Positions 39,010 to 56,231 of a DNA stretch of 64,000 bases are shown in pieces (within the stretch, counting starts at the first letter, position 1; each line of letters opens with the position of its first letter). The DNA is from Thermodesulfobacteriota bacterium (GTDB lineage Bacteria; Desulfobacterota; Binatia; Bin18): contig OZ219926.1 of NCBI GenBank assembly GCA_964291405.2, forward strand, positions 2,720,001 to 2,784,000. The letters are read 5' to 3'. The position numbers were made by a program, and so were the translations under genes. A model generated the notes under the pieces. It had not been told where the DNA came from, made no database searches, and worked only from the letters and a program-made list of their open reading frames with translations.

Positions 39010-40749
39010 ATGGAATCAGACACAACGCGCGGCAAAGACTCCATTCGCTACGAACCCAACGAAAACCCACCGCCCCTGCTCTCCTTCGGTATCGGCTTTC
39101 AGGCGGCCATGCTGGTAGTGGCCGGGATAGTATTGACCCCCGCGATTGTGATCCGGGCGGCCGACCAGAGCGAGGTCTATCTGTCCTGGGCGATCTTTGC
39201 GGCGCTTATTATCAGCGGGTCAACCACCGTCCTGCAAGCCGTCCGGGTCGGGCGCTTCGGAGCCGGCCACATCCTGATCATGGGGACCTCCGGCGCCTTT
39301 ATCGCGGTGTGCATCACCGCCCTGGTGAAGGGCGGGCCGGCCTTGCTGGCGACGCTCATCTTTATCTCTTCCTTGTTCCAGTTCACCCTGGCGACTCGGC
39401 TATCGCTCTTACGACGGATCATTACGCCGGTTGTTTCGGGCACAGTGGTCGCGCTGATTGCCGTGACCATTATGCCCATCGCGTTTCAGATGGTGTCGGT
39501 CGTGCCCGAGGGCACGTCGCCGGCAGCCGCGCCGGTGTCCGCCACCGCCACCCTGGTCGCCATTGCGGTGCTGGCATTGCGTGCGTCGGGTGTATGGCGG
39601 CTCTGGGCACCGGTCATCGGCATTGCGGTGGGCTGTCTGGTTGCCTCTTTCTTCGGGCTCTATGATGTTGCGCGCGTGGTCGAGGCGGATTGGATTGGCA
39701 TGCCGACATCCGGCTGGCCCGGCTTTGACCTGTCGTTTGGGAGCGAGTTCTGGGTGCTGCTGCCGGCCTTCGTGTTTGTGACCCTGGTCGGTGCCATTGA
39801 AACAATAGGCGATTCAGTGGCCATTCAGCGCGTCTCATGGCGCACCCCCCGGGCGGTCGATTTCCGCACGGTCCAGGGTGCGGTGAACGCCGATGGCCTG
39901 GGCAATCTGTTGTCCGGTCTGGCCAGTACTGTGCCGAATACGACCTATTCGAGCAGCATCCCGCTCACCGAATTAACCGGCGTGGCGGCGCGCAACGTCG
40001 GGGTCAGCCTGGGTCTCATCTTCATCGCTCTCGCCTTTCTGCCCAAGGTGTCCGCCCTGATCCTCGCCATTCCCAGCCCGGTGGTTGCCGCCTATGTCAT
40101 GGTGCTGATGGGTATGCTCTTCGTCCAGGGTATGAAGATCGTCATGCAGGACGGACTCGACTATCGGAAAGGCGTAGTGGTCGGGATTTCTTTCTGGCTC
40201 GGCGCGGGCTTTCAGAACCAGGACATCTTTGCCGCCCAACTCGGCGAGCAGTGGGGGGCGCTGCTCGGCAATGGCATGACAGCCGGCGGCCTGGCCGTTC
40301 TCGTCCTGACCCTGTTTACGGAACTGACGGGTCCGCGCCGCCACCGCCTGGAAATGGACCTGGACATAACGGCCCTGCCCAAGATCGACGGGTTTCTACG
40401 GGACCTGGCCTCGCGCTTCGGCTGGCATACCGCCTCGACGGAGCGCTTGTGCGCGGCCGGTGAGGAAACGCTGCTGAGTCTGGTGCAGCCGGAGGATGAA
40501 ACCACCCCCGACAAGCGGCGGCTCTTTATTGTTGGGCGTGGCGACGGCGCGGAAATCGAGTTGGAATTTGTGGCCGCGGTCGGGGATGAAAATCTCGAAG
40601 ACCGCATGGTCCTGCTCGGTGAGGGGAGCACCACACCCGAAGAGCACGAGATTTCTCTCCGCCTATTGAAACATTTTGCGGCCTCGGTCCGCCACCAGCA
40701 ATACCACGATATCGACATCGTAACCGTGCGGGTCGAAGCGGCACGCTAG
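39010..40749 (+). CDS. NCS2 (xanthine/uracil) permease with extra C-terminal soluble domain
   Basis: GTSGAFI, ITPVVSG, ETIGD, ADGLGN, PNTTYS, IPSPV; ~135-aa hydrophilic tail. Confidence 0.85.
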   Translation: MESDTTRGKDSIRYEPNENPPPLLSFGIGFQAAMLVVAGIVLTPAIVIRAADQSEVYLSWAIFAALIISGSTTVLQAVRVGRFGAGHILIMGTSGAFIAVCITALVKGGPALLATLIFISSLFQFTLATRLSLLRRIITPVVSGTVVALIAVTIMPIAFQMVSVVPEGTSPAAAPVSATATLVAIAVLALRASGVWRLWAPVIGIAVGCLVASFFGLYDVARVVEADWIGMPTSGWPGFDLSFGSEFWVLLPAFVFVTLVGAIETIGDSVAIQRVSWRTPRAVDFRTVQGAVNADGLGNLLSGLASTVPNTTYSSSIPLTELTGVAARNVGVSLGLIFIALAFLPKVSALILAIPSPVVAAYVMVLMGMLFVQGMKIVMQDGLDYRKGVVVGISFWLGAGFQNQDIFAAQLGEQWGALLGNGMTAGGLAVLVLTLFTELTGPRRHRLEMDLDITALPKIDGFLRDLASRFGWHTASTERLCAAGEETLLSLVQPEDETTPDKRRLFIVGRGDGAEIELEFVAAVGDENLEDRMVLLGEGSTTPEEHEISLRLLKHFAASVRHQQYHDIDIVTVRVEAAR

Positions 40750-40776
40750 GCGGGGATCATCTTCGGCCTGCAATCC

Positions 40777-42192
40777 CTACTCAACGGCCGGTTTGGTCGC
40801 TTGCCAGGGGCACATCTTCTCGAACGCCGCGGAGGCACGTAGCACCCCGGCATCGTCAAACCGCCGTCCCACAATTTGGAGTCCGACTGGCAAGCCTGCT
40901 TTTGTAAATCCACACGGAATGGACGCCGCCGGATTCCCGGTCAGATTGAAGGGAAACGTAAAGGTGAGCCACTCGTACGGGGAGAGCCGGGTGCCGTTTA
41001 CTGATTTGGCATTGTCGAGCCCGACCGCAAACGGCGGGCAGGGCAGGGTCGGGGTAAGCAGCAGGGTGTATTTCTCAAAAAATTTCTGGACCCCGGTATT
41101 CCAGTCCAGGCGCGCGAACCACGCGTCAATATAGTGGTTGGCTTTCCATTTATGCGTTTTCTCAATCAACTTCACCAGATTGGGATCAATATCCGACCGG
41201 CGCGTTTTGAGCGCTGGCCCCAGCCGGGCAGCAATCCCGCCACAAAACAGACCCTCCCAGGCCGGTTGCGGGTTTGGCCATTTGGGTTTGACGCTTTCGA
41301 CCCGACACCCCAGGTCCCTGAACCGCCGGGCCGCCTTGGCGCACAGGGCTTTGACCTCCGGGTCAAGCGCCTTGGTAGAGCCCAGATCATCGCACCATGC
41401 CACCCGCCAGCCTTCCATTGAGCCCTTGAGAGCTTTGACATAGTCGGTCGTGTCCGCCGGTAGAGAGTACTGGTCGTGCCCGTCCGGTCCTGCCGTGACG
41501 TTCAGCATGAGCGCGGCATCGGCCACCGTCCGCGTCATCGGCCCGACATGCGACAAACTCCAGGCTCCGCTCGGCGGATACACCGGAATCCGGCCAAAGG
41601 ACGGCTTGATCCCATATACCCCGCTGAACGACGAAGGGATACGGATTGAGCCGCCCCCATCCGTTCCTATGGCCAGAGGTCCCAGGCCGGCCGCGATCGC
41701 CGCTCCGGCTCCGCCACTTGAGCCGCCCGGTGTCAAGGCGAGATTCCACGGATTCCGGGTTGGCCCGAACAAGAGATTGTGCGTGACTCCCAGCCAGCCA
41801 AACGTTGGCGTATTTGTCTTGCCGAGCTGAATGCCCCCCGCCGCTTTCATGCGTGCCACCATGGGGGCATCTTCAGTCGGGACGTTGTCGGCGAACAGCG
41901 GTGTCCCAAACGTCGTGCGCACCCCTTTGGTTATCACCAGGTCCTTGGTTGAGAACGGAACGCCGTGGAGCGGACCAAGTGAAGCCGAGCGCTGCATCAG
42001 CATTTTCTCGGCTTTACGCGCGTCGCGCAGCGCGGCTTTGTCCGTCAGGGTGACAAAGGCGTTGAGCCGTGGGTTGAGTTGGTCAATGCGATCGAGTATC
42101 GCTCGCGTGACTTCGACCGGGGAGAGCTGTTTGCGCCGAATCGCTTTCGCCAGTTCGGTTGCGGACAGCCAGCAGATATCGTCCTTTGCCAT
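40777..42192 (-). CDS. Amidase signature family enzyme
   Basis: LHGVPFSTKD, GKTNTP, PGGSSGG, GTDGGGSIRIP, GLPVGLQIVG. Confidence 0.93.
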   Translation of the reverse strand: MAKDDICWLSATELAKAIRRKQLSPVEVTRAILDRIDQLNPRLNAFVTLTDKAALRDARKAEKMLMQRSASLGPLHGVPFSTKDLVITKGVRTTFGTPLFADNVPTEDAPMVARMKAAGGIQLGKTNTPTFGWLGVTHNLLFGPTRNPWNLALTPGGSSGGAGAAIAAGLGPLAIGTDGGGSIRIPSSFSGVYGIKPSFGRIPVYPPSGAWSLSHVGPMTRTVADAALMLNVTAGPDGHDQYSLPADTTDYVKALKGSMEGWRVAWCDDLGSTKALDPEVKALCAKAARRFRDLGCRVESVKPKWPNPQPAWEGLFCGGIAARLGPALKTRRSDIDPNLVKLIEKTHKWKANHYIDAWFARLDWNTGVQKFFEKYTLLLTPTLPCPPFAVGLDNAKSVNGTRLSPYEWLTFTFPFNLTGNPAASIPCGFTKAGLPVGLQIVGRRFDDAGVLRASAAFEKMCPWQATKPAVE

Positions 42193-42651
42193 GTTGTTCT
42201 TTCTGCTCACTTTTGTTAGCACTTCACCCTTTTCTAAAAGTGAGGGATTTCAGGGGCTTGGCGAGTTTATTGTGGTTTTTCTTCTTACCTCTCTCAGGCT
42301 TCTGACATATCCTTAATACTACCATTTCATTGTGACACAGGTTTTCTCCGTATTCAAAGGGAAACTCCCTCATAACTCCCCGCTCCCAGGTCCCCCCGCT
42401 GCCCGGAGGCGGCCGCCCCGACGGGCAAGCCACAGCCCGTTCAGAACGCTTGACCGACACGGTGTCTGGCGTTATCTATTGTACTTTTTCTGCGTAACTT
42501 ATTTATATTACACCACTTTTTACTCCTCATATTAGTAGCAAACCCCTCAAGACTAGGGGAACTAGCGGTGCATGACGGTAGCGGACCGTAGACGAGAGGA
42601 AGCCAGTATACCACCAGCAGTCGGTGCCGATACCGAGAGAGGACATACCAC

Positions 42652-43635
42652 GTGCCCCGCAACGACCAAGTCACTCGCCAGTGGTTCTTGATGCAGAAAT
42701 TGGAGCAGTCCCAAGGGGCGACCGTGCAGGAATTGGCCGCCTCCCTGCCCGAAGATTTTTCCTGTCACCCGCGCACCATTCGACGCGACCTCGAAGCCCT
42801 GGAGGCCGCGCATATTCCTCTCGTCACCGAACGCAGCAACGGGCAGACCCGCTGGCGGCTGATGGACGGCTATCGCAAAGTCCTTCCCCTGGCACTCTCG
42901 CCGACCGAACTCATGGCCCTGGTCTTCAGCCGGGATTTACTGCAACCCCTGGAAGGAACGGAACTCAAGGCGTCGCTCGATTCTGCGCTCAACAAGGCCG
43001 CAGCCGCGCTACCAGCAGAGGGCACACGCTATCTTGAGCAACTCCGAAGCCATTTTTCCGTCGGGCTGGGTGCCCACAAGACCTACCGTCAGCATAGACA
43101 GACCATAGACCACCTCCAGCGGGCCATTGCCCAGACGCGCACCGTACAAATGCGCTATTACACGGCCTCGCGCGACCGGACCGGCCGCCGCGAGGTGGAC
43201 CCCTATCACCTGTGGTACGCCGACGGCGGGCTGTATCTGATCGGCCACTGTCACCTGCGCCAGGAGGTGCGCATGTTTGCAGTGGACCGGATTCGTTCCC
43301 TGACCTTGACCAATCGTCCCTGCCAGATGCCGTTCGATTTCGACCTGGACGCTTATGTGAAGGACGCCTTGGTGGTCATGCGCGGAACACCGATTGAGGT
43401 CGAACTGTTGTTCGACAAACCCACCAGCGCCTGGGTGAAAGGCCGGCAGTGGCACCCGAGCCAGCAGACCACGGAACGGAAAGACGGACGCCTGGCCATG
43501 TCGATTCGCGCGGCAGATACGCGCGAGTTGGTTGGCTGGGTGTTGCACTTTGGTAGTGGGGTGCAGGTCATCAGCCCGGAATCCTTCCGAGACAAGGTCC
43601 GCGCAGAAGCCCAAAAAATTTGTGAACAGGAGTGA
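42652..43635 (+). CDS. HTH-WYL-WCX transcriptional regulator (PafB/PafC-like)
   Basis: RTIRRDLEAL HTH; REVDPYHL, LYLIGHC, RMFAVDRI; WVLHFG..VQVISPESFR. Confidence 0.92.
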   Translation: MPRNDQVTRQWFLMQKLEQSQGATVQELAASLPEDFSCHPRTIRRDLEALEAAHIPLVTERSNGQTRWRLMDGYRKVLPLALSPTELMALVFSRDLLQPLEGTELKASLDSALNKAAAALPAEGTRYLEQLRSHFSVGLGAHKTYRQHRQTIDHLQRAIAQTRTVQMRYYTASRDRTGRREVDPYHLWYADGGLYLIGHCHLRQEVRMFAVDRIRSLTLTNRPCQMPFDFDLDAYVKDALVVMRGTPIEVELLFDKPTSAWVKGRQWHPSQQTTERKDGRLAMSIRAADTRELVGWVLHFGSGVQVISPESFRDKVRAEAQKICEQE

Positions 43636-43664
43636 CCCCGGATGTCACACCGGTGTGCTACAGG
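43632..43664 (+). promoter_or_regulatory. Candidate WYL operator/promoter
   Basis: GTGAC-N7-GTCAC overlapping the WYL stop codon; TGTCAC-N10-TACAGG. Confidence 0.5.
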
Positions 43665-43701
43665 CAATGCAAATGAACTGACCCAGCGACGGCCCCTGCT
43701 T

Positions 43702-43738
43702 CCCTCTCCCCTGGAGGGAGAGGGCTAGGGTGAGGGGG
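43702..43738. repeat. REP-type palindrome (CCCTCTCCC-N5-GGGAGAGGG family)
   Basis: CCCTCTCCCCTGGAGGGAGAGGGCTAGGGTGAGGGGG. Confidence 0.7.
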
Positions 43739-43764
43739 AAGAGATGGAGAAAGGAACATATCGC

Positions 43765-43890
43765 ATGCCCTCGATTGATTTAGCGTTTCGCCTGACCGGA
43801 TCAGCCCTTCCGGTTGACCACGGCTATGCCTTGTATGCCGCGCTGAGCCGGATTCTGCTCTCAACCTTCAACAAAATATCTGCCTCTTAA
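43765..43890 (+). pseudogene. Truncated cas6 of MYXAN/Cmx6 type (N-terminal ~31 aa only)
   Basis: MPSIDLAFRLTGSALPVDHGYALYAALSRIL then unrelated tail and TAA; AGGA upstream; too short for the ORF track. Confidence 0.8.
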
Positions 43891-43908
43891 TATAGAAGAA
43901 CCGTTTTT

Positions 43909-44889
43909 ATGGATGATTTCTCTCCGTCTGATCTCAAGACCATTCTCCACTCAAAACGCGCCAATATGTACTACCTTCAACACTGTCGGGTATTGGTCAA
44001 TGGTGGGCGAGTGGAATATGTGACCGATCAGGGTAAACAGTCTCTCTACTGGAATATCCCTATCGCTAATACAACCTCTTTGCTTTTGGGCACGGGCACC
44101 TCAATAACACAAGCAGCAATGCGCGAATTAGCCAAGGCTGGTGTCTTGGTCGGGTTTTGCGGCGGCGGCGGCTCGCCTCTATTTGCGGCAAATGAAGTTG
44201 AAGTGGATGTGTCTTGGCTGAGTCCACAGAGCGAATATCGGCCTACGGAGTATTTACAGCACTGGGTCAGTTTCTGGTTTGACGAAGACAGCCGCGTTGC
44301 CGCTGCAAAAGCGTTCCAACACGTGCGTTTTGAACAGATTAGAAAACATTGGCTGGATTCGACAATGCAACGGGAAAGCGCGTTTGATCTCAGCGCCGCT
44401 GCTCTCACCACTATTCTTGATACGACACAAGAATCATTGGAATTGTGTCAAACAACCAATGCCATTCTTTCGCTAGAAGCCCAGATTACCAAGCATCTAT
44501 ACAGACTTGCAGTCAACGCTGTTGGCTATGGAGAGTTTGTCCGTGCGAAACGGGGCTCAGGCTCCGACTTGGCGAACCGATATCTTGACCACGGGAATTA
44601 TCTCGCTTACGGACTGGCGGCCACTGCGGCCTGGGTGCTTGGCCTGCCTCATGGTCTCGCGGTACTGCACGGAAAGACCAGGCGGGGAGGGCTGGTCTTT
44701 GATATCGCCGACCTAGTGAAAGACGCTCTGATCCTCCCGCAAGCCTTCATTTCGGCAATGGCCGGTCAGGATGAACAAGAATTTCGTCAAGCCTGCCTCC
44801 ACCGATTCAATCAAGCCGAAGCCCTGGACACCATGATAGACACCATCAAGTCTGTTGCGATTGAGTTCAGCAAAGTCCCACGACCATGA
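43909..44889 (+). CDS. cas1: Type I-F Cas1
   Basis: ILHSKRANMYYL, YWNIPIANT, YLDHGNYLAYG, HGKTRRGGLVFD. Confidence 0.97.
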   Translation: MDDFSPSDLKTILHSKRANMYYLQHCRVLVNGGRVEYVTDQGKQSLYWNIPIANTTSLLLGTGTSITQAAMRELAKAGVLVGFCGGGGSPLFAANEVEVDVSWLSPQSEYRPTEYLQHWVSFWFDEDSRVAAAKAFQHVRFEQIRKHWLDSTMQRESAFDLSAAALTTILDTTQESLELCQTTNAILSLEAQITKHLYRLAVNAVGYGEFVRAKRGSGSDLANRYLDHGNYLAYGLAATAAWVLGLPHGLAVLHGKTRRGGLVFDIADLVKDALILPQAFISAMAGQDEQEFRQACLHRFNQAEALDTMIDTIKSVAIEFSKVPRP

Positions 44890-47800
44890 ATATCTTGCTT
44901 ATCTCTCAGTGCAATAAAAGAGCCCTGGTTGAAACTAGGCGCGTTCTGGATCAATTTGCAGAACGCAAAGGTGAGCGTACCTGGCAAACAGCAATCACAC
45001 TTCAAGGTTTGCAGACACTCCGCAAGATGCTGAAAAAATCAGCGCGGAGAAATACCGCCGTGGCCTGTCACAGAATCGGCGGCAAGAATTACAGCGAATT
45101 GCTGTGGGTGGTCGGCAACGCCAACAAGTTCAATATCGAAGGCACGATCCCGACCAATTTCACCCGGCGCGACGTGTTGAAGGCCGACGACGAGAACCAA
45201 TGGTACACGGCAACGATTATTGCCCTTCTCTCGGCACTAGCAGCCTTGTTTCACGACTTTGGGAAAGCCAATGTCCTGTTCCAGGACAAGCTGAAAAAAG
45301 GAAAGCGTGCCACGGAGCCATATCGCCACGAATGGGTCAGTCTCCGCATGTTTGAGGCGTTTGTTCGCGGCGAGCCAGACGAACAATGGCTGCAACGGTT
45401 AGCCAACGTTTCGAGCAGTGATGAACAGAGCCTCTTAGACCGCCTCAAAGCAATACAGGACCACCCCGATACAGTAATAGATTCGCCGTTCAAGTCTCTG
45501 AAACCCCTCGCGCAAGCGGTCGGCTGGCTTATCCTGACGCACCACAAACTTCCACAGACTCCGAAAGAGGAAAAAGGACGACTCAAGCACATTGCCTATT
45601 TCCTCAGCCGCCACCTTCAACCCGATTGGAACTCGTCTCGGGAAAGATGGGTGAAGGGCGAACGGAAAGAGTGGGCCGGCGCAGACGAAGAAGTCGGTCA
45701 GGTTTGGACTTTCCCAGACGGAACACCGTTAAGAAGTAGTACTTGGTGCAAGAAAGCCCGGAACATCGCCCAACGATTGGCGCAACCCGGCATTTTTGAT
45801 TCGTCTGATTCGTCCTGGGACAACGATTTTGTTATGCACGTTGCCCGCATGACCCTCATGCTGGCGGACCACTATTACTCGTCGCAGGACCGCGATCCAA
45901 GGTACGGGGATGATGGTTACAAGGTCTACGCCAACACTGACAAGGACGGCAATCGGAAACAACAGCTTGATGAGCACCTTGTCGGTGTCTACAAGCACAG
46001 CTTACGGATTATGAGAATCCTCCCTGGGCTGAGAAACACCTTACCGGCACTCGGACGACATGCGGCCTTCAAGAAACGGACACGAGACAGCCGGTTTCTC
46101 TGGCAGAATAAAGCCTACGAATTGGCATGTTCTCTGAAGGACAAGGCACAAGAGGGTGGTTTTTTCGGGGTAAACATGGCGTCAACCGGGTGTGGCAAAA
46201 CGTTTGCCAACGCACGCATCATGTATGCCTTGGCTGACGAGAAACGTGGCTGCCGGTTCAGTGTTGCCTTGGGTTTACGAACCCTGACACTACAGACCGG
46301 CGATGCTTTCCGGCAAAGAATGCTGCTAGACGAAGATGATATGGCAGTGATGATTGGCTCTGCCGCGGTCCGCAAGCTCCATGAAGATCAAGTGGCGGAA
46401 AAGGAAAAAGAGGAACAGGAAAAACCGGACAGGTTCACCGGATCGGAATCCGCCGAGGCGTTAGATGACGACTATTACATCATCTATGACGAGGCGCTTG
46501 CAGATACCGCGCTCAAGCGTTGGCTCAAAGCCTCGCCAAAGGCAGACCGTATGGTCGGTGCGCCTATCTTGGTCAGCACGATTGACCATCTTATGCCAGC
46601 AACGGAAGGCACGCGCGGCGGCCGGCAGATTGCTCCCATGCTCCGCCTGCTGACCTCAGACTTGGTGATAGACGAGCCGGACGATTTCAGTCTTGATGAC
46701 CTCAAGGCACTGACCCGTTTGGTCCATTGGGCCGGAATGCTGGGCAGCAAGGTCGTGCTCTCTTCCGCAACGCTTTCTCCTGCTCTCCTGACCGGACTCT
46801 TCCAGGCATATCATATTGGACGGACCGTCTATAACAAAAATTGTGGAAACCCGAACCAGGAAACTATCTACTGCGCGTGGTTTGACGAGAAAAAGGCAGA
46901 GCCCGCAGCCATTGCCAATGTCGAAGAGTTTCGTGCCAATGTGGAGAAGTTTCGTCAACAGCACAGTACTTTTACGAAGGATCGAGCGGCAGAGCTCGCA
47001 ACTGGACATCCGAAACGAAAAGCAGAAATCGTGTCGTTGACCGGCTCTGTACTGACGCCGCAGGACGCTGTGAATGTAATGAGTGAAAAGATTCTCGAAG
47101 GCATACACCGACTGCACAGCGACCACAGCCAAGAAGACCCAAAGACCAAGAAAAGAATCAGTGTTGGTCTGGTCCGCATGGCGAACATCAACCCGCTTGT
47201 ATCCGTCGCACAGCGTTTGCTGGAAAAGGAGCCCCCGGCTGATACAACTGTCCACTATTGCGTGTACCATAGTCGGTTTCCCTTGATCGTGCGATCCGAA
47301 ATCGAGCGCATTCTTGATACGGTCCTGACTCGAAAGGACGGCAAAGAACTCTGGCAGTCCTCCGTTATCCAAGAAGCAATCGCACGCGCCGCTACCACAA
47401 ATCATATCTTTGTCGTGATAGCCTCTCCCGTAGCCGAGATCGGACGCGATCATGACTATGATTGGGCAGTTGTCGAACCGAGTTCTATGCGGTCTCTCGT
47501 CCAAATAGGCGGACGGGTCTTACGTCACAGGGACCGGCTACCAGAAACGGTGAACATGCTCTTGTTGAGTAAAAACTATAGGGGTTTGACAGGCAAACGG
47601 CCCGCGTTCTGTCGCCCCGGTTTCGAGTCCGACGACAGGCGACTTACCCGCTATGACTTGGCCGACCTTCTCTGCGAGGACCAATACACCGTGATTGATT
47701 CCCGACCCTGCATCGTCCCGAGAGAGAATTTCGACCCAACACAAAACCTGGCGGACATGGAACATCGGGAAACCGATCTTGCCTTCTCCAGCCCTGACCA

Positions 47801-48206
47801 AAGCGACCCATATGCCTCGCAGTGGATCAAATCACGCGCCACGCTGACCGGGGAGCTTCAGAAGCGGACGCCGTTTCGGAAGTCTGCCAAAGAAGACGAC
47901 TATTTCCTGCACCTAGGAGAAGGCGATGAGGAACCCACAGTCAGAAAATGGCACGGAGACGGACCGTACAAAGAAGCCAAAGACTGTGATGAGATTAACC
48001 TGACCGAACTGTCTATAGATTCTGGCAACAGAATATGGGGGCACGTTGCTTACTCGGACGCACTGAACCGGCTGGCACAGAAGGAAGGCAAGGACGTAGA
48101 AGAACTTGGCAAGACCTACGGGACGTTTTCCTTGCGGCCTGCACGGATTGGCTGGCCTTGGCAATATACCCCAAAAATCGGTTTTTATGAGCCGATGAAA
48201 AAATGA
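44886..48206 (+). CDS. cas3: Type I-F Cas2-Cas3 fusion helicase/nuclease
   Basis: N-terminal Cas2 (ETRRVLDQFAER), FHDFGKA HD motif, MASTGCGKT, IDEPDD, GRDHDYDW. Confidence 0.96.
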   Translation: MNILLISQCNKRALVETRRVLDQFAERKGERTWQTAITLQGLQTLRKMLKKSARRNTAVACHRIGGKNYSELLWVVGNANKFNIEGTIPTNFTRRDVLKADDENQWYTATIIALLSALAALFHDFGKANVLFQDKLKKGKRATEPYRHEWVSLRMFEAFVRGEPDEQWLQRLANVSSSDEQSLLDRLKAIQDHPDTVIDSPFKSLKPLAQAVGWLILTHHKLPQTPKEEKGRLKHIAYFLSRHLQPDWNSSRERWVKGERKEWAGADEEVGQVWTFPDGTPLRSSTWCKKARNIAQRLAQPGIFDSSDSSWDNDFVMHVARMTLMLADHYYSSQDRDPRYGDDGYKVYANTDKDGNRKQQLDEHLVGVYKHSLRIMRILPGLRNTLPALGRHAAFKKRTRDSRFLWQNKAYELACSLKDKAQEGGFFGVNMASTGCGKTFANARIMYALADEKRGCRFSVALGLRTLTLQTGDAFRQRMLLDEDDMAVMIGSAAVRKLHEDQVAEKEKEEQEKPDRFTGSESAEALDDDYYIIYDEALADTALKRWLKASPKADRMVGAPILVSTIDHLMPATEGTRGGRQIAPMLRLLTSDLVIDEPDDFSLDDLKALTRLVHWAGMLGSKVVLSSATLSPALLTGLFQAYHIGRTVYNKNCGNPNQETIYCAWFDEKKAEPAAIANVEEFRANVEKFRQQHSTFTKDRAAELATGHPKRKAEIVSLTGSVLTPQDAVNVMSEKILEGIHRLHSDHSQEDPKTKKRISVGLVRMANINPLVSVAQRLLEKEPPADTTVHYCVYHSRFPLIVRSEIERILDTVLTRKDGKELWQSSVIQEAIARAATTNHIFVVIASPVAEIGRDHDYDWAVVEPSSMRSLVQIGGRVLRHRDRLPETVNMLLLSKNYRGLTGKRPAFCRPGFESDDRRLTRYDLADLLCEDQYTVIDSRPCIVPRENFDPTQNLADMEHRETDLAFSSPDQSDPYASQWIKSRATLTGELQKRTPFRKSAKEDDYFLHLGEGDEEPTVRKWHGDGPYKEAKDCDEINLTELSIDSGNRIWGHVAYSDALNRLAQKEGKDVEELGKTYGTFSLRPARIGWPWQYTPKIGFYEPMKK

Positions 48207-48258
48207 CGGTTTGCTTCGTATCGGCCAGTAAGATGGCAGGAACGAAGCTAACGGACCA

Positions 48259-48286
48259 ATTCACTACCGCACGGGTAGCTAAGAAA
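48259..48286 (+). CRISPR. Solitary degenerate I-F repeat between cas2-3 and cas8f
   Basis: ATTCACTACCGCACGGGTAGCTAAGAAA, 23/28 identical to the array repeat with stem pairing preserved. Confidence 0.88.
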
Positions 48287-48324
48287 TATCTATCGATATT
48301 TATACTTTTAGAGGAGATTTCGTG

Positions 48325-49602
48325 ATGCCAAACACACAACAGAACGGGCTTACTGCTCGAATCCTGGAATACGTCCAGCAACGAGAAGCCGAGGAACTGA
48401 AGAACGTCAAGGACGATGCCAAACGACTGAAAATCGCGGCCAAGTACGAACCTCAAACCTGGCTGAGCGAGAAAGCCCGTACAGCAAAAAGCGTCGCTGC
48501 CTCCTCTTGGCAGTCATTCTCCGATGTCACGCATGTGGCGAAGTTTGTCCACGGCGGCGCAGAGGCGAGTAGCGTTTCCACAACGGGAGCGAAAGAAACT
48601 GACGGCTATATTTCCACGCCCAGTGTTGCAATGCTCACCTACGATACCGCCTGCAATGCTGCTGCCCTCCCTATTAAGCCTTTCTTGCTTCTCGAACATG
48701 ACGGTCGGACACTGATTGATGCCTTGCGACAAGGGGACGTGTCTCCGCTCTTGGAGATTGCTCCAGATGAAACAACGGCGCAGGAGTGGGCAAGCGCGTT
48801 TATCTCGGCTTTTGAGGCAAAGGAACCCGACGCACACATGATCAAACAGTGCTATTGGCCGGTCCCCAGCGATGGGTATCATCTCCAGATTCCGCTTTAC
48901 CCTACGTCATTCGCGCAGGCGATTTATGCGTCTATTCAACGCGCAAAATTCTCCGGCGAGGCCAAAGCAACCCGGAAAGCCCGCAGCGATGAACAGGAAT
49001 CCGACCGAGAAGATGTCCGCTATCCAAACCTTGCCATTCAGAGCTTTGGCGGCTCTAACAAACAGAACATCAGCCAACTGAACAGCCCGCGTGGTGGCAA
49101 AGCCTACTTGTTCTCATGCGCGCCACCAACCTGGAAACGACGGAACGCTCCGCCTCTGCACATCTCCTCCGTTTTTCCCTCTTGCTTTGAACGCCAAGTC
49201 CGGTCCCGACATATCAAGCCGCTACAGGAGTTCCTGTACAGCGTTCGAGACAAGGACACTAACGCCAGAATCAGAAAACACCGCGAGGGACGGGTGGATG
49301 CCCTGATAGATGTCATTCTGAGTCAGGCGGCTGACATTCAACAGATGCAACCGGGATGGAGCGCTGACCCTGACTGCCGGTTGCCGCTTGCGGAGCAGTA
49401 TTGGTTAGACCCTGAAAGAGCGGAGACGGATGAGGGTTTTCGGTCCGAACGAGACGCGGCTGACTGGCAAACCGAGGTCGCCAACACCTTTGCTATCTGG
49501 CTCAGTCGCAAACTGGAGCGTAACGGGCTTGCTTTCGGTGCCGATGAACAACATGCACTACGCAGCGATTGGCGTAATCGCATGAGGGAGGGGATTGTAT
49601 GA
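48325..49602 (+). CDS. csy1: Type I-F Cas8f (Csy1)
   Basis: THVAKFVH, NAAAL, KQCYWP, FGGSNKQNISQLNSPRGG, PPTW; alternative GTG at 48322. Confidence 0.92.
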   Translation: MPNTQQNGLTARILEYVQQREAEELKNVKDDAKRLKIAAKYEPQTWLSEKARTAKSVAASSWQSFSDVTHVAKFVHGGAEASSVSTTGAKETDGYISTPSVAMLTYDTACNAAALPIKPFLLLEHDGRTLIDALRQGDVSPLLEIAPDETTAQEWASAFISAFEAKEPDAHMIKQCYWPVPSDGYHLQIPLYPTSFAQAIYASIQRAKFSGEAKATRKARSDEQESDREDVRYPNLAIQSFGGSNKQNISQLNSPRGGKAYLFSCAPPTWKRRNAPPLHISSVFPSCFERQVRSRHIKPLQEFLYSVRDKDTNARIRKHREGRVDALIDVILSQAADIQQMQPGWSADPDCRLPLAEQYWLDPERAETDEGFRSERDAADWQTEVANTFAIWLSRKLERNGLAFGADEQHALRSDWRNRMREGIV

Positions 49603-50531
49603 TGGACCATGATTTTGTTGTTGTTTTGAGGCATCTGGAAGTCCACGGGGCCAACGCCATTACTGGCGCGACCTATGGGTTTCCCGCAATAACGCATTTC
49701 CTGGGCCACGCGCACGCCTTGCAACGCAAGCTGTCGGAAGAGTTTGCTCTGACCTTTGACGGCTGCGGGGTTGTTTGTCACCGGCATCATGTCCACGCGC
49801 ACAGACCTCCTGGCGGCCTTGGCTTCACCGATTTCGGTTTCGCTCTGAGCCGCAATCCTCTTGATAAAAAGGGCCAGTCACCGTCGTTTGTCGAAGAGGG
49901 CAAGATGAATATGGAGGTGACGCTGCTCATAGCCGTAACGGAAGGAAACCAACCAATCGGTCCGGTAGAGCAGGAGAAACTAAAAAAAGATTTGTTGAAC
50001 CAGTCAACCCGACAACGCTTGGCCGGTGGAGTTATTACCAACACGCCGGAAATTGAAATCATCCAGAGCGAGGCTTTTGAAGAGGGCCGGAAGAAAATCC
50101 TACGAGACCTCCTGCCGGGATTTGCGTTAGTGAGTCGGCACGATTTGCTGCTGGCCGAGCAGGACCGACAACGCAAGGCTGGCGTTCAAGACCCGGAACT
50201 CGCCGCCTGGATGTCGTTTTCGACGATACGGTACGCCGCCGATACAAACCAAACACAGAACGGCAAAACTCCGTGGCTGTTGGTGGAAAAACCGGCGACC
50301 GGGTGGATCACGCCTCTTGCCGTAGGCTATCGGCGCATCTCCCCACTGTACGGCCCTGGAAAGGTCAAGAATGTCCGCGACCCGACTGTACCGGCCTGTT
50401 TTGTGGAAAACCTGTATTCCCTCGGGCAGTGGATCAGTCCGCACAGAATCACAGACACGGACCATTTGTTCTGGCAGCAGGAATACGACGGTACAGGGCG
50501 GTATCTCTGCCGCAATTCGTATGAACCATAA
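49599..50531 (+). CDS. csy2: Type I-F Cas5f (Csy2)
   Basis: [40 protein letters not shown]. Confidence 0.93.
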
Positions 50532-50619
50532 AGAGGGAGATGGTGATGTAGACATAGAAGGTTCGTGCGGAAAGAGGGCCGATTTCACAAACCGAAAGTA
50601 CAAAGAAAGGACCATCACT

Positions 50620-51642
50620 ATGACAACGCAGGTAAAAACAGCATCAGTCCTGGCGTTCGAGCGGAAACTGGCGAACTCCGACGGCCTGATGTACTCAGGC
50701 AAATGGGAGAATCGAGACAATGCGGAATCCTGGTCGCCACTGACGGTCCACGAGAAAGCAGTACGGGGTACTATCTCAAACCGCCCGAAGACCAAAGGCG
50801 ATTCAGACCCTTTGAAACTGAACGAGAAAATCGAGAACCCGAATCCCCAGACGGTCGATGTGGCCATGCTGCCGCACGATCACGACACGGTGATACTCGC
50901 GTTTACGCTTCGAGTGCTCTCAGACCTGGATGTCCCATCTGCGTGTAATGACGCGGACTACCAAGAGGCGTTGGGGACAACGATCAATACCTATATCGCC
51001 AAGCACGGTTTTGCCGAATTGTCTCAGCGCTATGCCACGAATATAGCCAATGGGCGCTTCCTGTGGCGGAATCGTGTCGGCGCTGAAACCGTTACGGTAC
51101 GTGTGACCCGGTATCAGGGGCAGGAAGTCGTAGCCAGATGGGACTTTGAGAGCGGCCGTATATCCTTGCGGGATTTCGGTACTACGGACGTGGACGTGTC
51201 TGCACTCGCAGCCGCTATTGAAGCCGGTCTGAAAGGGGAGGCGTTTACGTTTCTCAAGATAGAAGGCTTTGCCCGTCTCGGCGAGGGACAGGAGGTGTTT
51301 CCCTCTCAGGAACTCATTTTAGACCGAGACAATGCCGGGAAGAGCAAAACGCTCTATGAAATTGGGGGTGTGGCGGGATTGCATTCTCAAAAAATCGGCA
51401 ACGCGCTGAGAACAATAGACACCTGGTATCCCGAAGCAGACCAATTTGGCCCCATATCGGTTGAACCGTTTGGCTCCGTCACCAATCGTGGCAAGGCATA
51501 CCGCCAGCCCAAAGACAAGCTGGATTTCTATACCCTCCTCGATAATTGGGTCTTAAAAGGAAAGACCCCCGAAGTGGAACAGCAACATTACGTTATGGCC
51601 GTGTTGGTTCGGGGCGGTGTTTTTGGAGAAAAGTCAGAGTGA
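50620..51642 (+). CDS. csy3: Type I-F Cas7f (Csy3)
   Basis: [57 protein letters not shown]. Confidence 0.96.
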
Positions 51643-51651
51643 GGTAGGAGC

Positions 51652-52203
51652 ATGGACCATTACGTTGATATCCAGGTGCTTCCCGACCCGGAGTTTCTGG
51701 AGACCACGCTCATGAATGAACTGTTCTCCAAATTGCACCGGGCGCTGGGGAAACACGGGCAGGGCAAAATAGGAGTGAGTTTTCCCAAGCACGGCAAAAC
51801 CCTTGGACCGCGAATTCGTCTACATGGCAGCAAAGGGGCGCTTGAGGAATTCATGCAAACGCAGTGGATAGCGGGCATGACGGATTATTGTCGTGTCAGC
51901 GCTGTTTGCCCTGTCCCCCCTCAGACTTCATTCTGTACGGTCAGGCGAGTCCAAGCGAAGAGTGCATACAACAAACGGAACCGCTCGGTGGCGAAGGGCT
52001 GGTTGGATGAATCTGAAGCGCAGAAGCGTATTCCCGATTCTCAACAGAGAATGCTTGATCTGCCATACGCTCAACTCCGCAGTTTATCGAATGGAAATAT
52101 GATGCGCGTTTATATTGAGCATAGTAAGCCGATCCAACAATCCGTCGCAGGGTCATTTTCCGCCTATGGTCTCAGCAGCACTGCTACCGTCCCCTGGTTT
52201 TGA
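51652..52203 (+). CDS. cas6f: Type I-F Cas6f (Csy4) endoribonuclease
   Basis: MDHYVDI..PDPEF, KLHRAL, GVSFP, FSAYGLS..ATVPWF. Confidence 0.96.
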   Translation: MDHYVDIQVLPDPEFLETTLMNELFSKLHRALGKHGQGKIGVSFPKHGKTLGPRIRLHGSKGALEEFMQTQWIAGMTDYCRVSAVCPVPPQTSFCTVRRVQAKSAYNKRNRSVAKGWLDESEAQKRIPDSQQRMLDLPYAQLRSLSNGNMMRVYIEHSKPIQQSVAGSFSAYGLSSTATVPWF

Positions 52204-52332
52204 CCCTTTTTTCCTGGTTATCCATAACCCTTTGATTTACTTGTATATTTTTTAGGGGTTCGTATTAAGGTAAAGTCGTCACGTTTTACCCGAACTCCTT
52301 GAGAATCAAAGGCTTACACATCTGTGTCTTCA
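52204..52332 (+). promoter_or_regulatory. AT-rich CRISPR leader with two IHF-consensus sites
   Basis: WATCAANNNNTTR matches at 52304-52316 (+) and 52225-52237 (-). Confidence 0.8.
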
Positions 52333-53861
52333 GTTCACTGCCGTACAGGCAGCTAAGAAATACACGCTTGATCTCTTTGCCGGTGATTCTGCGTTCACTG
52401 CCGTACAGGCAGCTAAGAAAAGCTAGAGCTAGACGTACAACTGTTGAACCCCGTTCACTGCCGTACAGGCAGCTAAGAAAACCCAGATATGCCGGGCTGT
52501 GGGGTGTGCTGGGTTCACTGCCGTACAGGCAGCTAAGAAAACCCTGGATTCCGTAGCGGCGGGAGACATGGTGTTCACTGCCGTACAGGCAGCTAAGAAA
52601 AGTTGCCTGGCATTTTTGCCGGGGCAGACTATGTTCACTGCCGTACAGGCAGCTAAGAAAACCGTGGAGTGCCGCGCCGTGACCCTGACCGTGTTCACTG
52701 CCGTACAGGCAGCTAAGAAAGCCATATGGTAACCCAGAAGCTGGCCGATGCCGTTCACTGCCGTACAGGCAGCTAAGAAAAGCTTGATCCTCACCGTTCC
52801 CCCTGTCTTAACGTTCACTGCCGTACAGGCAGCTAAGAAAAAATCGTCGGGGACGTAGCGCCTGGACCAAGTGTTCACTGCCGTACAGGCAGCTAAGAAA
52901 TGAAAGCTGCTCAACTCCTGAACCTCCCGACCGTTCACTGCCGTACAGGCAGCTAAGAAATATCGTTGATTGGTGATTCAATGGTCGATTTTGTTCACTG
53001 CCGTACAGGCAGCTAAGAAAAAGCGGAATTCCCAGATGGCCGAGGCGATACGGGTTCACTGCCGTACAGGCAGCTAAGAAAGCTCAGCCTAGAGGAGGAA
53101 GAGCCGATGAAAGGTTCACTGCCGTACAGGCAGCTAAGAAAACCAGCGGCTGACGAAACCCGAACTGCTGGATGTTCACTGCCGTACAGGCAGCTAAGAA
53201 ATTCGCGAAGTCATGTCGAACGACCTGGAGGGCGTTCACTGCCGTACAGGCAGCTAAGAAATATTGGGGGTCGCCATACTTCTATTTATGTTCGTTCACT
53301 GCCGTACAGGCAGCTAAGAAAACCGGGCTTGTCGTGCAGAACGAGGCCGGGACGTTCACTGCCGTACAGGCAGCTAAGAAATCCTCTGCTGTTGGGCATC
53401 CACTATGGATATTGTTCACTGCCGTACAGGCAGCTAAGAAAGTCTGCCTCTGATTACCCGCATTCGGCACTCAGTTCACTGCCGTACAGGCAGCTAAGAA
53501 AAACAAAAGCGAGCAAGACGACACGATGCACACGTTCACTGCCGTACAGGCAGCTAAGAAATATCGACTGGCGCGGCGGGTCAACCAGCTCGTGTTCACT
53601 GCCGTACAGGCAGCTAAGAAAAAGAGCATCAAGTCGGTCCGCTATCCAGTCGCGTTCACTGCCGTACAGGCAGCTAAGAAATTGATGTCGCCGAAGACCG
53701 TAGAGTACTGTCCGTTCACTGCCGTACAGGCAGCTAAGAAAAACGCGACTACGCCCGCAGCGAGCACGGCAAGGTTCACTGCCGTACAGGCAGCTAAGAA
53801 AAGCGAAAGCAGGTGGTTGAGCGCTGTATTGAAGTTCACTGCCGTACAGGCAGCTAAGAAA
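52333..53861 (+). CRISPR. Type I-F CRISPR array: 26 identical 28-bp repeats, 25 spacers (24 x 32 bp, 1 x 33 bp)
   Basis: GTTCACTGCCGTACAGGCAGCTAAGAAA at 60-bp period. Confidence 0.99.
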
Positions 53862-53905
53862 CTGGAAAATCAAGGACTTATCCAAGAAACCCTGGTGCCC
53901 GGTTT

Positions 53906-53984
53906 GTCACCCCTGTGAAAACAGGGACAGGAATCCAGGCTATCCGCCTACGTCCTCTGGATGCCGGATCACGTCCGACATGAC
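53906..53984 (+). repeat. REP/BIME-like composite palindrome (GTCA...GAATCCAG/CTGGAT...TGAC family)
   Basis: Inverted homolog of 55491-55586. Confidence 0.7.
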
Positions 53985-54038
53985 GAGAGCGGAGCGGCAG
54001 GGCGACAGCTTGGCGTGAAATGCTCTTATTGAGCGAAA

Positions 54039-54075
54039 GAAGCACCGGCCTTAACGAGCCGGTGAGGACTGAAAC
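54039..54075 (+). CRISPR. Orphan 37-bp CRISPR-like repeat of a non-I-F family
   Basis: GAAGCACCGGCCTTAACGAGCCGGTGAGGACTGAAAC: CACCGGC/GCCGGTG hairpin and ...TGAAAC end; single copy. Confidence 0.65.
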
Positions 54076-54139
54076 GCCAAATCAAAAGCCCGTTGCTCTT
54101 CGCCTTGACGAAGGTTCAGGAATGAGAAAAAACTAGACC

Positions 54140-54433
54140 ATGACCGAGTTTGAGACAGCGACGATTGCTTTCCAGAACGCTTCCCTGTGGGCAGCCTCTA
54201 TTCAGGCCGGGATAGCGGGCCTGGTAGGACTGGTGCAATGCGCCTTGATTTTTTACGGCTTAAAGCTGATGCAGCGGAGCAATACCGACCGACAACGCCA
54301 AATGGACCTCGCCGAGAAGCGGCATGAGGAAAGCCTGTCGGCCTTACAGACCCAGACGGGCCTTGCCGAGAAGCGGCATGAGGAAAGCCTGCTCACATTA
54401 CGGACACTGATTGAACGGACCGCACCTCGGTGA
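54140..54433 (+). CDS. Small hypothetical membrane protein with internal 18-aa-period duplication
   Basis: One hydrophobic segment; LAEKRHEESL twice (27 identical bp at 54311 and 54365). Confidence 0.6.
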   Translation: MTEFETATIAFQNASLWAASIQAGIAGLVGLVQCALIFYGLKLMQRSNTDRQRQMDLAEKRHEESLSALQTQTGLAEKRHEESLLTLRTLIERTAPR

Positions 54434-54571
54434 CGCGCCCCTCCAAAAAAAGGAACGTCACGAAATGTGCCTAGGCCCCCATCCGACCTTGTCACTATCT
54501 GGGCTGAATGGTAGGGTTCCCCTCGATTTTACGGCTCATCCCTCGACTGGAACATATTCAGGAGTACATAC

Positions 54572-55450
54572 ATGCCCGAACAGCAAACAGACATTTCAGC
54601 CCAACGCGTGACCTATCGCGTCGAAGAAGAACTCACCATTATCGGCGACGCCTGGGGAGACACCGGCAATCCGCCCGTCCTGCTCCTGCACGGCGGCGGC
54701 CAAACGCGCTTTGCCTGGGGAAATACGGCCCGGACCCTGGCCGAGCACGGCTGGTATGCAGTGTCCCTGGACCTGCGTGGGCATGGAGAGAGCGGCTGGG
54801 CTCCGGACGGCAATTACAATATCGAGAAGTTTTCTGCGGACCTCCACGTCGTGCTGGGTCATTTTGACCAACGGCCGGTTCTGGTCGGGGCCTCCCTGGG
54901 CGGCATTACCTCAATGCTGACCGAAGGGGAAGCGCCGCAGCCGGTGAGTGCCGGTGTGGTCCTGGTTGATGTCACGCCGCGGGTGGAGCAGAAGGGCGTG
55001 GACCGCATTCGAGCCTTTATGACCGCCCGACCCGACGGCTTTGAGAGTCTGGAAGAAGTCGCCGATACCATCGCCGCCTATATTCCCCACCGTCCCCGTC
55101 CAAAGGATGTGAGCGGGCTGGCCAAAAACCTGCGTAAGGGAGAGGACGGCCGCTACCGCTGGCACTGGGACCCGGACCTCATGAACCCGGCCCGCTTTCG
55201 GCGCGACCCCGAACGGCTCATGGCCGCGGCCCGCGGGCTGCGGCGAGTGCCGACCCTGCTGGTCCGAGGGAAACTCAGCGATGTGATCAGCGACGAAACG
55301 ACCCAGGAATTTCTCGATGCCGTGCCGCATGCCAAATATATCGATGTGTCTGATGCCGGCCATATGGTCGCCGGGGATAAGAACGACATCTTCAGCCAGG
55401 CGGTCATCGAATTCCTGGCCGATATCAAGACAACCGCGCCGGCCGCTTAG
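54572..55450 (+). CDS. Alpha/beta hydrolase
   Basis: LHGGGQT, DLRGHGES, GASLGG, WHWDP, AGHMVAGD. Confidence 0.9.
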   Translation: MPEQQTDISAQRVTYRVEEELTIIGDAWGDTGNPPVLLLHGGGQTRFAWGNTARTLAEHGWYAVSLDLRGHGESGWAPDGNYNIEKFSADLHVVLGHFDQRPVLVGASLGGITSMLTEGEAPQPVSAGVVLVDVTPRVEQKGVDRIRAFMTARPDGFESLEEVADTIAAYIPHRPRPKDVSGLAKNLRKGEDGRYRWHWDPDLMNPARFRRDPERLMAAARGLRRVPTLLVRGKLSDVISDETTQEFLDAVPHAKYIDVSDAGHMVAGDKNDIFSQAVIEFLADIKTTAPAA

Positions 55451-55490
55451 GGCGTTTTCGGGTGGTCTCTCGCCGTTCTCTTGCGTTTTC

Positions 55491-55586
55491 GTCATGCCGG
55501 ACGTGATCCGGCATCCAGTCCTCCGACTTCGCCTTGCTACGCTCAGGACGAACAGGGGGCTGGATTCCTGCCTTCGCAGGAATGAC
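55491..55586 (-). repeat. REP/BIME-like composite palindrome
   Basis: GTCATGCCGGACGTGATCCGGCATCCAG...CTGGATTCCTGCCTTCGCAGGAATGAC. Confidence 0.75.
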
Positions 55587-55808
55587 GGGTGGCCACACAG
55601 AAGCGTCGTTTGCTCTGGTCAGGAGCGTTGAGACAGCCGGCCCTACTGCTCCCGGCCCGTGGTGTAAAACTCGTCGTTGGGTCGTATCGTCAGATGAGCC
55701 ATGCGAGGGGACATCCCAGGGCTCGCCAAAAAATCTTGGCTTTCGCAATGGAGCCAGCTAGGCTAGGGGCCTGCTTGCGATCTGTTGTGGGACAAAAGGA
55801 GGGCCATT

Positions 55809-56231
55809 ATGGAAAACAAGCCGGAAAAAACAGCCCTGCAAGACGATTACTCCTACCGGGCGGTCGATGCCTATAACACCCGGATGTACCTCCTGCCATC
55901 GCTTGCTGACCCCGAGCGCCGCGCCGCGCTGATTGCCGAGCACCGCGCCCGTCCGCTGTATGAGGCCGCTCAGCCCGGCAAACCCGCTCCCATGGACAGC
56001 CCGGAGCTGGCCCGTTTGCTGGACCGCCTGCGCGTTGTCCCCCAGCAGGACAAACATGTCATTGTCGAAACGCGCCCCTGGGAGGAATATCGTATTGGTG
56101 TTTTGCCTGGTGTCCGAGGCAAGGCGATTCATATAACGGACGAAGCCTATCCCACTCGTGAAGACGCCGAGCATGCGATTTTCCTCAAACGCCTCAACGC
56201 CTTACTCGACGCCTACGGGATTACAGACTAA
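55809..56231 (+). CDS. N,N-dimethylformamidase small subunit-like protein
   Basis: LIAEHR, SPELARLL, RPWEEYRI, RG, DAEHAIFLKR; directly upstream of the large subunit. Confidence 0.75.
   Translation: MENKPEKTALQDDYSYRAVDAYNTRMYLLPSLADPERRAALIAEHRARPLYEAAQPGKPAPMDSPELARLLDRLRVVPQQDKHVIVETRPWEEYRIGVLPGVRGKAIHITDEAYPTREDAEHAIFLKRLNALLDAYGITD

Follow-up and report, generated by a model that had tools for sequence, protein, structure and literature searches.

The window analyzed here is a stretch of 64,000 nucleotides (nt) of contig OZ219926.1 from a Thermodesulfobacteriota bacterium, and its plus strand carries a complete type I-F1 locus with a CRISPR array and cas genes. NCBIfam matches, all far above the cut-offs, identify the six genes of a I-F locus (Cas1f, Cas3f and Csy1-4), and the product of the cas6f gene gives a full-length alignment of 183 amino acids (aa) with a solved Cas6f. 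The array downstream consists of 26 exact copies of one repeat with a period of 60 nt and a single interval of 61 nt. We focus on a solitary, degenerate copy of this repeat, called psiR, which lies on the sense strand between the stop codon of cas2-3 and the start of cas8f (csy1), 38 nt 5' of the ATG (Table 1). This ATG is preferred over the alternative GTG because it aligns with the N-termini of the relatives described below. No promoter-like or terminator-like site, and no sigma-70-like site, was called in the 115-nt gap between the two genes, from which we infer that psiR is co-transcribed with its neighbors.

The likeness of psiR to the array repeat is beyond chance. The two are identical at 23 of 28 positions and differ at positions 1, 8, 12, 15 and 18, with the last 10 nt (positions 19-28) being the same. 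Positions 8 and 18 make up a compensatory change in the stem, from G-C to A-U. The initial annotation had pointed out these features, together with the strand, the location and a Shine-Dalgarno (SD) sequence of cas8f, GAGGAG, within the 32 nt that follow the repeat, and all of them are confirmed from the sequence. Folding with ViennaRNA predicts a hairpin of -6.7 kcal/mol, compared with -8.6 for the array repeat, and the hairpin is present in the minimum free energy structure of the 146-nt context. The features that the Racr paper (PMC10651486) names as needed by Cas6f are all retained: the C6-G20 closing pair, the 5-bp stem and the full 8-nt handle. The Rfam model CRISPR-DR4 matches psiR over its full length (1-28) with 32.2 bits (E=1.8e-4), a score below the gathering score of 35, and gives 47.5 for the array repeats. 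In a control, none of 100 shuffles contained a match with 3 or fewer mismatches. Downstream of the hairpin, a weak pairing between handle and pseudo-spacer is predicted (-4.1 kcal/mol, an energy as low as which is found for 4.7% of shuffles).

Table 1. Features of the type I-F1 locus and of the cas2-3/cas8f gap (window positions).
Feature	Position	Strand	Basis and remarks
cas1	43909-44889	+	NCBIfam
cas2-3 (Cas3f)	44886-48206	+	NCBIfam; gene upstream of psiR, same strand
Predicted stem-loop GCUUCGU...ACGAAGC	48213-48247	+	Fold; just 3' of the cas2-3 stop; no U-tract, not called a terminator
psiR, solitary degenerate type I-F repeat ATTCACTACCGCACGGGTAGCTAAGAAA	48259-48286	+	23/28 to array repeat
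Predicted Cas6f hairpin CUACC-GCACG-GGUAG	48264-48278	+	Fold; repeat positions 6-20; A8-U18 compensatory; predicted cut after G20
8-nt 5' handle CTAAGAAA	48279-48286	+	Same as in array repeat (8/8)
Perfect inverted repeat AATATC-N4-GATATT	48285-48300	+	Spans handle end and pseudo-spacer; sole exact copy in the window; weak RNA hairpin
Pseudo-spacer region, AT-rich	48287-48318	+	32 nt as defined in the initial annotation; SD GAGGAG at its positions 25-30
Shine-Dalgarno GAGGAG of cas8f	48311-48316	+	Sequence
cas8f (csy1)	48325-49602 (ATG) or from GTG 48322	+	NCBIfam
csy2	49599-50531	+	NCBIfam
csy3	end at 51642	+	NCBIfam
cas6f (csy4)	51652-52203	+	NCBIfam; intact
CRISPR array	52333-53861	+	26 identical I-F repeats GTTCACTGCCGTACAGGCAGCTAAGAAA, orientation as psiR

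The absence of a second repeat, also stated in the initial annotation, holds genome-wide. None lies beside psiR, and a scan of the 4.95-Mb genome at up to 8 of 28 mismatches returned the 26 array copies, psiR (5 mismatches) and another solitary repeat 167 kb off. Moreover, no Cas6f-type hairpin is predicted in 48287-48345. As a single repeat with no recognizable partner, psiR belongs to the descriptive class of solitary repeat units. The other solitary I-F repeat of this genome (C3:2935024-2935051, minus strand) has one mismatch, an intact hairpin and the handle CTAGGAAA, and is located where an orphan array with a different repeat of 36 nt (GTAACGACCTATCAGATGCCGTAAGGCGTTGAGCAC) ends; there are no cas genes within 5 kb, and ccm genes and a decarboxylase adjoin. 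The 32 nt after it have an 11-mer, CTCGAATCCTG, in common with the 5' coding part of cas8f (window 48356-48366), a match that lacks a CC protospacer adjacent motif (PAM), is mismatched at seed positions 1-2 and is probably due to chance.

We then compared the sequence upstream of cas8f among relatives of this locus. Cas8f was found in 5 of 61 related genomes, the window's own among them; the other four (G006, G017, G021 and G022) belong to the same genus and encode Cas8f with 54-58% identity to that of the window. A scan of metagenome contigs added a single locus, L012, with 59% identity. At class level (401 genomes) nothing beyond the four congeners was found at E<=1e-40, the sole find of a related-locus search of genome contigs was a Cas8f of 36% identity without anything repeat-like upstream of its gene, and a Csy1 search at phylum level gave 4 other loci. 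In the maximum-likelihood tree of Cas8f (midpoint root, eight rows, one long outgroup), the clade has a support of 98/99; the window is on a long branch (0.55), and G006, L012 and the pair of G017 and G021 cluster closely, their terminal branches measuring 0.09-0.13. The arrays of all four congeners share the repeat GTTCACTGCCG[G/T]ACAGGCAGCTAAGAAA.

By the yardstick of the initial annotation, conservation of the repeat and spacing in related I-F loci, the outcome is mixed to negative. A repeat-derived sequence is found directly 5' of cas8f in all six loci of the clade (the window and five relatives), the hairpin of the cas8f-proximal repeat is intact in two of them, the window and L012, and a distance of 32 nt between handle and SD is seen in the window alone (1/6), the handle abutting the SD elsewhere. 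In G017 and G021 there is one repeat-like sequence each, which agrees with the array repeat of the same genome at 24/28 and 22/28 positions, respectively, and has a handle that runs into the SD and ATG; these two relics share a change from GGCAG to GACCG and no hairpin is predicted for them. The relics of G006 and G022 are more decayed and can be aligned only with indels. The reading of A8/T18 as a derived state shared by the window and the G006 relic was rejected, as the tree groups G006 with L012 (G8/C18) and the relic aligns only with indels. As to the state of these loci in general, cas8f of G022 (L006/L007) is interrupted by a TAG stop and an array of at least 5 repeats is still there, and the array of G017 (L009, 10846-12416) has irregular spacing (26-62 nt) and several truncated repeats, which suggests internal deletions or assembly problems.

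The only two-repeat module with a target in the clade (1/6) is that of L012. Its first repeat, R1, shows no difference from the relatives' array repeat and is followed by a spacer of 21 nt, TTTGTCAAGTCCTTAATTCTT. The second repeat, R2, has a perfect hairpin and the handle CTCAGTAA (6/8), and leads directly into AGGAG and the ATG of cas8f. On the opposite strand, a site flanked by CC and overlapping the cas2-3 stop, at a promoter-like sequence, matches the spacer; within the first 14 positions, the two agree at 12/12 non-flipped ones and are mismatched at 6 and 12, and about 5e-5 such matches are expected by chance in 6.2 kb (arithmetic estimate). The first 21 nt of the window pseudo-spacer are identical to this spacer at 11/21 positions (compared by eye). 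Because L012 is nested among broken relics, the simplest view is that the group's ancestor had the complete module and that at least two independent losses followed. In L012 (2399-2488) and in L004 and L005 (~1460-1503), the leader of the csy mRNA contains the mini-array or its relic, and the handle nearest to cas8f directly adjoins the SD; therefore guide release and processing of the csy mRNA would be a single event in this clade. We found no statement of such a coupling by a leader-located mini-array in the literature compared. Between the targeted promoter-like sequence and the mini-array of L012, a GAGGAG SD and an ATG open a frame of 69 codons (2185-2474) that reads through both repeats and has its stop in the R2 handle. 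This frame could be a CreT-like cargo or be spurious. At ~2354-2374 there is also part of a repeat tail, GCAGCTAAGAAGGATGCGATG. By eye, the SD region of the window resembles the SD of this small frame, and the window pseudo-spacer resembles the L012 target region; neither likeness is used as evidence here.

We also surveyed a sample of 401 genomes of another class, 19 of which had Csy1 hits; 18 loci were examined, the two split hits of G810 (L042, L043) being left out. An intact repeat-like hairpin with canonical handle was found within 700 nt 5' of the Csy1 match in 5 of the 18 loci, two in sense and three in antisense orientation. The initial annotation had suggested that I-F cas3-cas8f gaps be surveyed for the same repeat-to-SD spacing, and our sample speaks against its proposal: in 0/18 loci does an intact sense-strand repeat lie within 40 nt of the cas8f start, and the two sense copies end ~139 and ~220 nt upstream. 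The hairpins of L028 and L038 were set aside as AT-rich and due to chance, their arms not being repeat-like. Another genus has a full mini-array in G585 and a lone hairpin with a degenerate handle in G643, in the same place after cas2-3. Judging from the clade and from this genus, decay of a mini-array to a lone relic is common. A textbook I-F mini-array is found in L031 (G792, reverse-complemented, ~1205-1320), with a terminator-like T-run in place of the R2 handle and a CC-flanked target 17 nt further on.

For the window pseudo-spacer (TATCTATCGATA...), we searched for a DNA target. The positive controls, L012 and the unrelated mini-array of G585 (L019), both gave CC-flanked 12/12 hits in their own locus, and a third mini-array, that of G792 (L031), has the same target pattern when read by eye. 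In the window, the stretch 40000-56000 contains no CC-PAM site that matches at 9/12 or better. Genome-wide, 37 seed-plus-PAM hits were obtained and ~37 are expected (arithmetic). The best site, C3:1497041, is CC-flanked and matches at positions 1-5, 7-11 and 13 (11 positions, ~0.15 such sites expected by chance); it lies inside an open reading frame (ORF) for a flavin monooxygenase of 490 aa, not in a promoter, and was rejected as a chance match. A hit of the palindrome to itself on the minus strand was likewise rejected as a target (10/12, with AA for the CC PAM and seed mismatches at positions 5 and 8). No viral contig contained the handle followed by the window seed; with the L012 seed there were 5 hits, none with a repeat hairpin upstream, and these were judged to be chance. 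The leader used as a protospacer query gave a best E of 0.3 against phages and no match against plasmids.

We interpret psiR as the orphaned first repeat, together with a pseudo-spacer remnant, of a CreR-type mini-array that is co-transcribed and still cut by Cas6f and has lost its guide function, an interpretation to which we give about an even chance of being right. In the ancestral design, a CRISPR RNA (crRNA)-like RNA would be cut by Cas6f from the leader of the csy mRNA and would direct the Csy complex to its own promoter, which would be repressed through a CC-flanked site with a partial match. L012 would retain this design. In the window lineage, in an order of events that we infer, the second repeat and the promoter target would have disappeared and the guide function with them, possibly, as a matter of speculation, by a slippage deletion between the pseudo-spacer and its direct-repeat target, which would leave a repeat, a hybrid and the SD. 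The remainder would be a Cas6f-competent hairpin with a canonical handle, presumably co-transcribed with cas1-cas2-3-csy1-4. Cleavage of the operon mRNA by Cas6f between 48278 and 48279, 46 nt 5' of the cas8f ATG, most likely still takes place, because cas6f is intact, the stem and closing pair are kept and processing of a solitary I-F repeat has been published: Cas6f binds such a repeat and processes it in the canonical position, with C6/G20 being crucial (PMC10651486). With regard to classification, psiR has the proximal repeat with Cas6f hairpin and 8-nt handle and the cas3-cas8 intergenic location of a mini-array, and it has neither a second repeat 20-60 nt downstream nor a seed match of at least 10 nt to a CC-flanked promoter site. 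As two defining features are absent, we regard psiR as a descendant of the mini-array family and do not file it as a working member.

The preservation of psiR weighs against such a decayed state. When five substitutions were placed at random, stem and handle were spared in just 1.25% of 400,000 trials, and in 0.75% if C6-G20 and U7-A19 must also stay unchanged. With 23/28 positions identical to the array repeat, psiR is far above the 41-46% identity that four-fold degenerate sites of cas8f show when the window is compared with its relatives (binomial P about 6e-5 at p=0.45), and the branch of the window exceeds by a factor of about four those along which the stems of the relatives broke. Hairpin and handle were therefore constrained for most of that time, which leaves a recent loss of the partner repeat and the target or a new job. 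As for recent loss, some caution is due, since with thousands of I-F loci one would expect a number of orphans to look intact, and psiR was picked for looking intact. In addition, psiR may correspond to either R1 or R2 of L012 (MAFFT aligns it with R1), and the comparison is based on five related loci only, two pairs of which are close kin.

If psiR does have a job, it could be that of a selected Cas6f processing site, a reading that we consider rather unlikely. The cut would split cas1-cas2-3 from the csy mRNA and alter stability or translation, the upstream piece ending in a Cas6f-capped hairpin and the csy piece starting with a 5'-OH, and loading of Csy would not be needed. The substitution pattern and the long branch point to constraint, and the stem is kept by the compensatory pair, with C6-G20 unchanged and the hairpin predicted to be stable. 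Furthermore, the 5'-OH product of Cas6f is more stable than a 5'-triphosphate transcript and Cas6f stays on its product, as stated in PMC10651486, and the mini-array in the csy leader of L012 implies that Cas6f cutting just 5' of the cas8f SD is ancestral in the clade. However, the hairpin was lost in four of the five relatives, three of them with an intact cas8f, and such processing is therefore dispensable in the clade; a processing site also leaves the 8/8 handle unexplained, for which the chance is about 0.15 given three non-stem changes (arithmetic). The handle does find a use in the feedback loop proposed by the initial annotation, in which Cas5f-Cas8f would assemble on the exposed handle and Cas7f on the next ~32 nt or more, hiding the SD, so that surplus Csy proteins would repress their own translation when crRNA is limiting. 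This loop uses every conserved part (hairpin, handle, sense strand and SD), as no other reading does, and needs neither a second repeat nor a DNA target. Cas7 filaments can extend along RNA without a 3' hairpin (PMC4937334), and 8-9 Cas7f subunits are reported on Racr RNA in PMC10651486. Nevertheless, the loop finds no support in our comparisons and we think it improbable. The 32-nt spacing is private to the window among the clade loci, four of which have a broken hairpin, L012, where alone among the relatives the hairpin next to cas8f is intact, carries a handle before the SD that is degenerate, and the 18 loci of the wider survey offered no comparable arrangement. The weak pairing predicted between handle and pseudo-spacer also argues against it, as does the finding of the Racr study that handle-only RNA was not inhibitory (PMC10651486). 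No natural control of cas mRNA by Cas6f or Csy was found in the literature, most subscription journals and supplements being outside the search. The 32-nt footprint itself carries little weight as evidence, because any repeat in so short a gap tends to have the SD within 32 nt and because, without a Cas6f-capped 3' hairpin, the length of the Cas7 filament is not fixed (PMC4937334; PMC10651486). A related version, a purely post-transcriptional loop exapted from a decayed CreR mini-array, would explain an intact hairpin and handle on a long branch that has neither partner repeat nor DNA target, and we hold it to be no less doubtful than the loop as first proposed.

The initial annotation also offered a trans-acting short guide, which we take to be very improbable. 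Here the 3' end of a crRNA-like RNA would be set by trimming, and Csy would be sent to a partially matching genomic site and repress it. The handle and hairpin are intact, CreR/CreA guides require a match of just ~10-14 nt (PMC10120712), and C3:1497041 offers one CC-flanked site. Against this, the genome-wide CC-PAM search lends the proposal no support, since that best match is at chance level and in the middle of an ORF, and the CRISPR-cas locus contains no target; without a second repeat, moreover, there is no Cas6f-bound 3' hairpin of a normal I-F complex, and viral contigs combining handle and seed are missing. Equally hard to credit is a DNA-level element, in which the AT-rich stretch with AATATC-N4-GATATT and TATACT would be an internal promoter or operator, with a helix-turn-helix (HTH)-WYL-WCX protein encoded at 42652-43635 (plus strand) as a candidate binder and the repeat being incidental. 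The palindrome has no other exact copy in the window, and pseudo-spacers of the mini-array class resemble promoters because they match them. Yet no sigma-70-like site was called, no second copy of the palindrome lies 5' of cas1 or of the regulator gene, a -10 element at 48301-48306 would put the transcription start inside the SD, and the conserved hairpin and handle would go unexplained.

An origin of psiR from a CreR-type mini-array fits well with what is known of I-F1 loci. Repeat-like sequences cluster by cas3, with at least one in 40% of 1145 loci and a mini-array in 15%; these mini-arrays have a well-preserved upstream repeat and a degraded downstream repeat, and the short spacer matches the cas8 promoter by a CC PAM with mismatches at positions 6 and 12 (PMC10120712). 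An example from P. aeruginosa represses its own promoter together with Cascade and without cleavage, and deterioration of the distal repeat of a mini-array may account for many of the single repeat units found in isolation (PMC10120712). CreR, or CreA when a toxin is controlled, is the name given by the Li laboratory, and their preprint describes such devices as sensing the demand for crRNA (bioRxiv 10.1101/2023.03.10.532045); in bacterial I-F systems, the pseudo-spacers of CreA/CreR are usually 23-27 nt, as given in 10.1101/2024.10.29.618823. psiR shares with the I-F1 mini-arrays of PMC10120712 the cas2-3/cas8f gap, the intact proximal hairpin and handle and an AT-rich promoter-like stretch after it, but unlike them it has no distal repeat and no PAM-flanked target in the locus. 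L012 is a complete version, and its CC-PAM target is mismatched at 6 and 12 as in P. aeruginosa YL84 (PMC10120712). The gap of psiR is 115 nt, whereas repeat-like sequences were tied to long gaps (>200 bp) in PMC10120712, and psiR lies in the cas8f leader, 24 nt 5' of the SD.

Two other known systems are also comparable in part. In CreTA, as described in 10.1101/2024.10.29.618823, CreA represses a small toxin gene by the csy operon, and the likeness lies in a degenerate mini-CRISPR within a I-F cas locus; L012 further resembles it in having a strong SD and ATG directly 3' of the targeted promoter, whereas the window lacks both a target and the space for a toxin gene. RacrIF1 is, like psiR, a single I-F repeat with a conserved C6-G20 stem, and PMC10651486 reports that it is processed canonically by Cas6f. 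According to the same paper, Racrs are borne by phages and plasmids, have strong promoters and act via the RNA upstream of the cut, with Cas6f and a Cas7f filament (PMC10651486). psiR differs from them in location and promoter, being chromosomal and within a cas operon, with no promoter of its own detected and no phage or plasmid match. A different kind of parallel comes from synthetic biology. Engineered Csy4/Cas6f sites, with the hairpin just 5' of the ribosome-binding site, are used to cut and insulate cistrons in synthetic operons. The likeness to psiR consists in a Cas6f hairpin between two cistrons of one mRNA, and a corresponding natural role would be an extrapolation.

The surroundings of the locus contain further features. 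The regulator gene with HTH, WYL and WCX domains is immediately 5' of the cas locus and is a candidate cas regulator, or else a remnant of an earlier system. Just 5' of cas1, a frame of 41 codons (43765-43887, plus strand) matches the first 31 positions of I-MYXAN Cas6/Cmx6 (TIGR02807, E=2.9e-8), far below the full-length cut-off, and looks like the stump of a different CRISPR-Cas system that was replaced by the I-F cassette. On the other side, 3' of the array, 54298-54405 (plus strand) consists of two tandem 54-nt copies, 81% identical, within a 97-codon frame without a family match.

A sensor of the Csy:crRNA balance built from a repeat is already known at the transcriptional level as CreR. 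If it is true that selection maintains psiR, the window would provide the first natural case of control of cas mRNA mediated by Cas6f or Csy. If instead psiR is the orphaned first repeat of a mini-array, the clade would represent stages in losing CRISPR self-regulation, with L012 being complete, the window holding a cleavable-looking orphan and G006, G017, G021 and G022 being broken. Such a decay series would be useful for the annotation of solitary repeats in cas loci, and would warn against reading function into copies that look intact.

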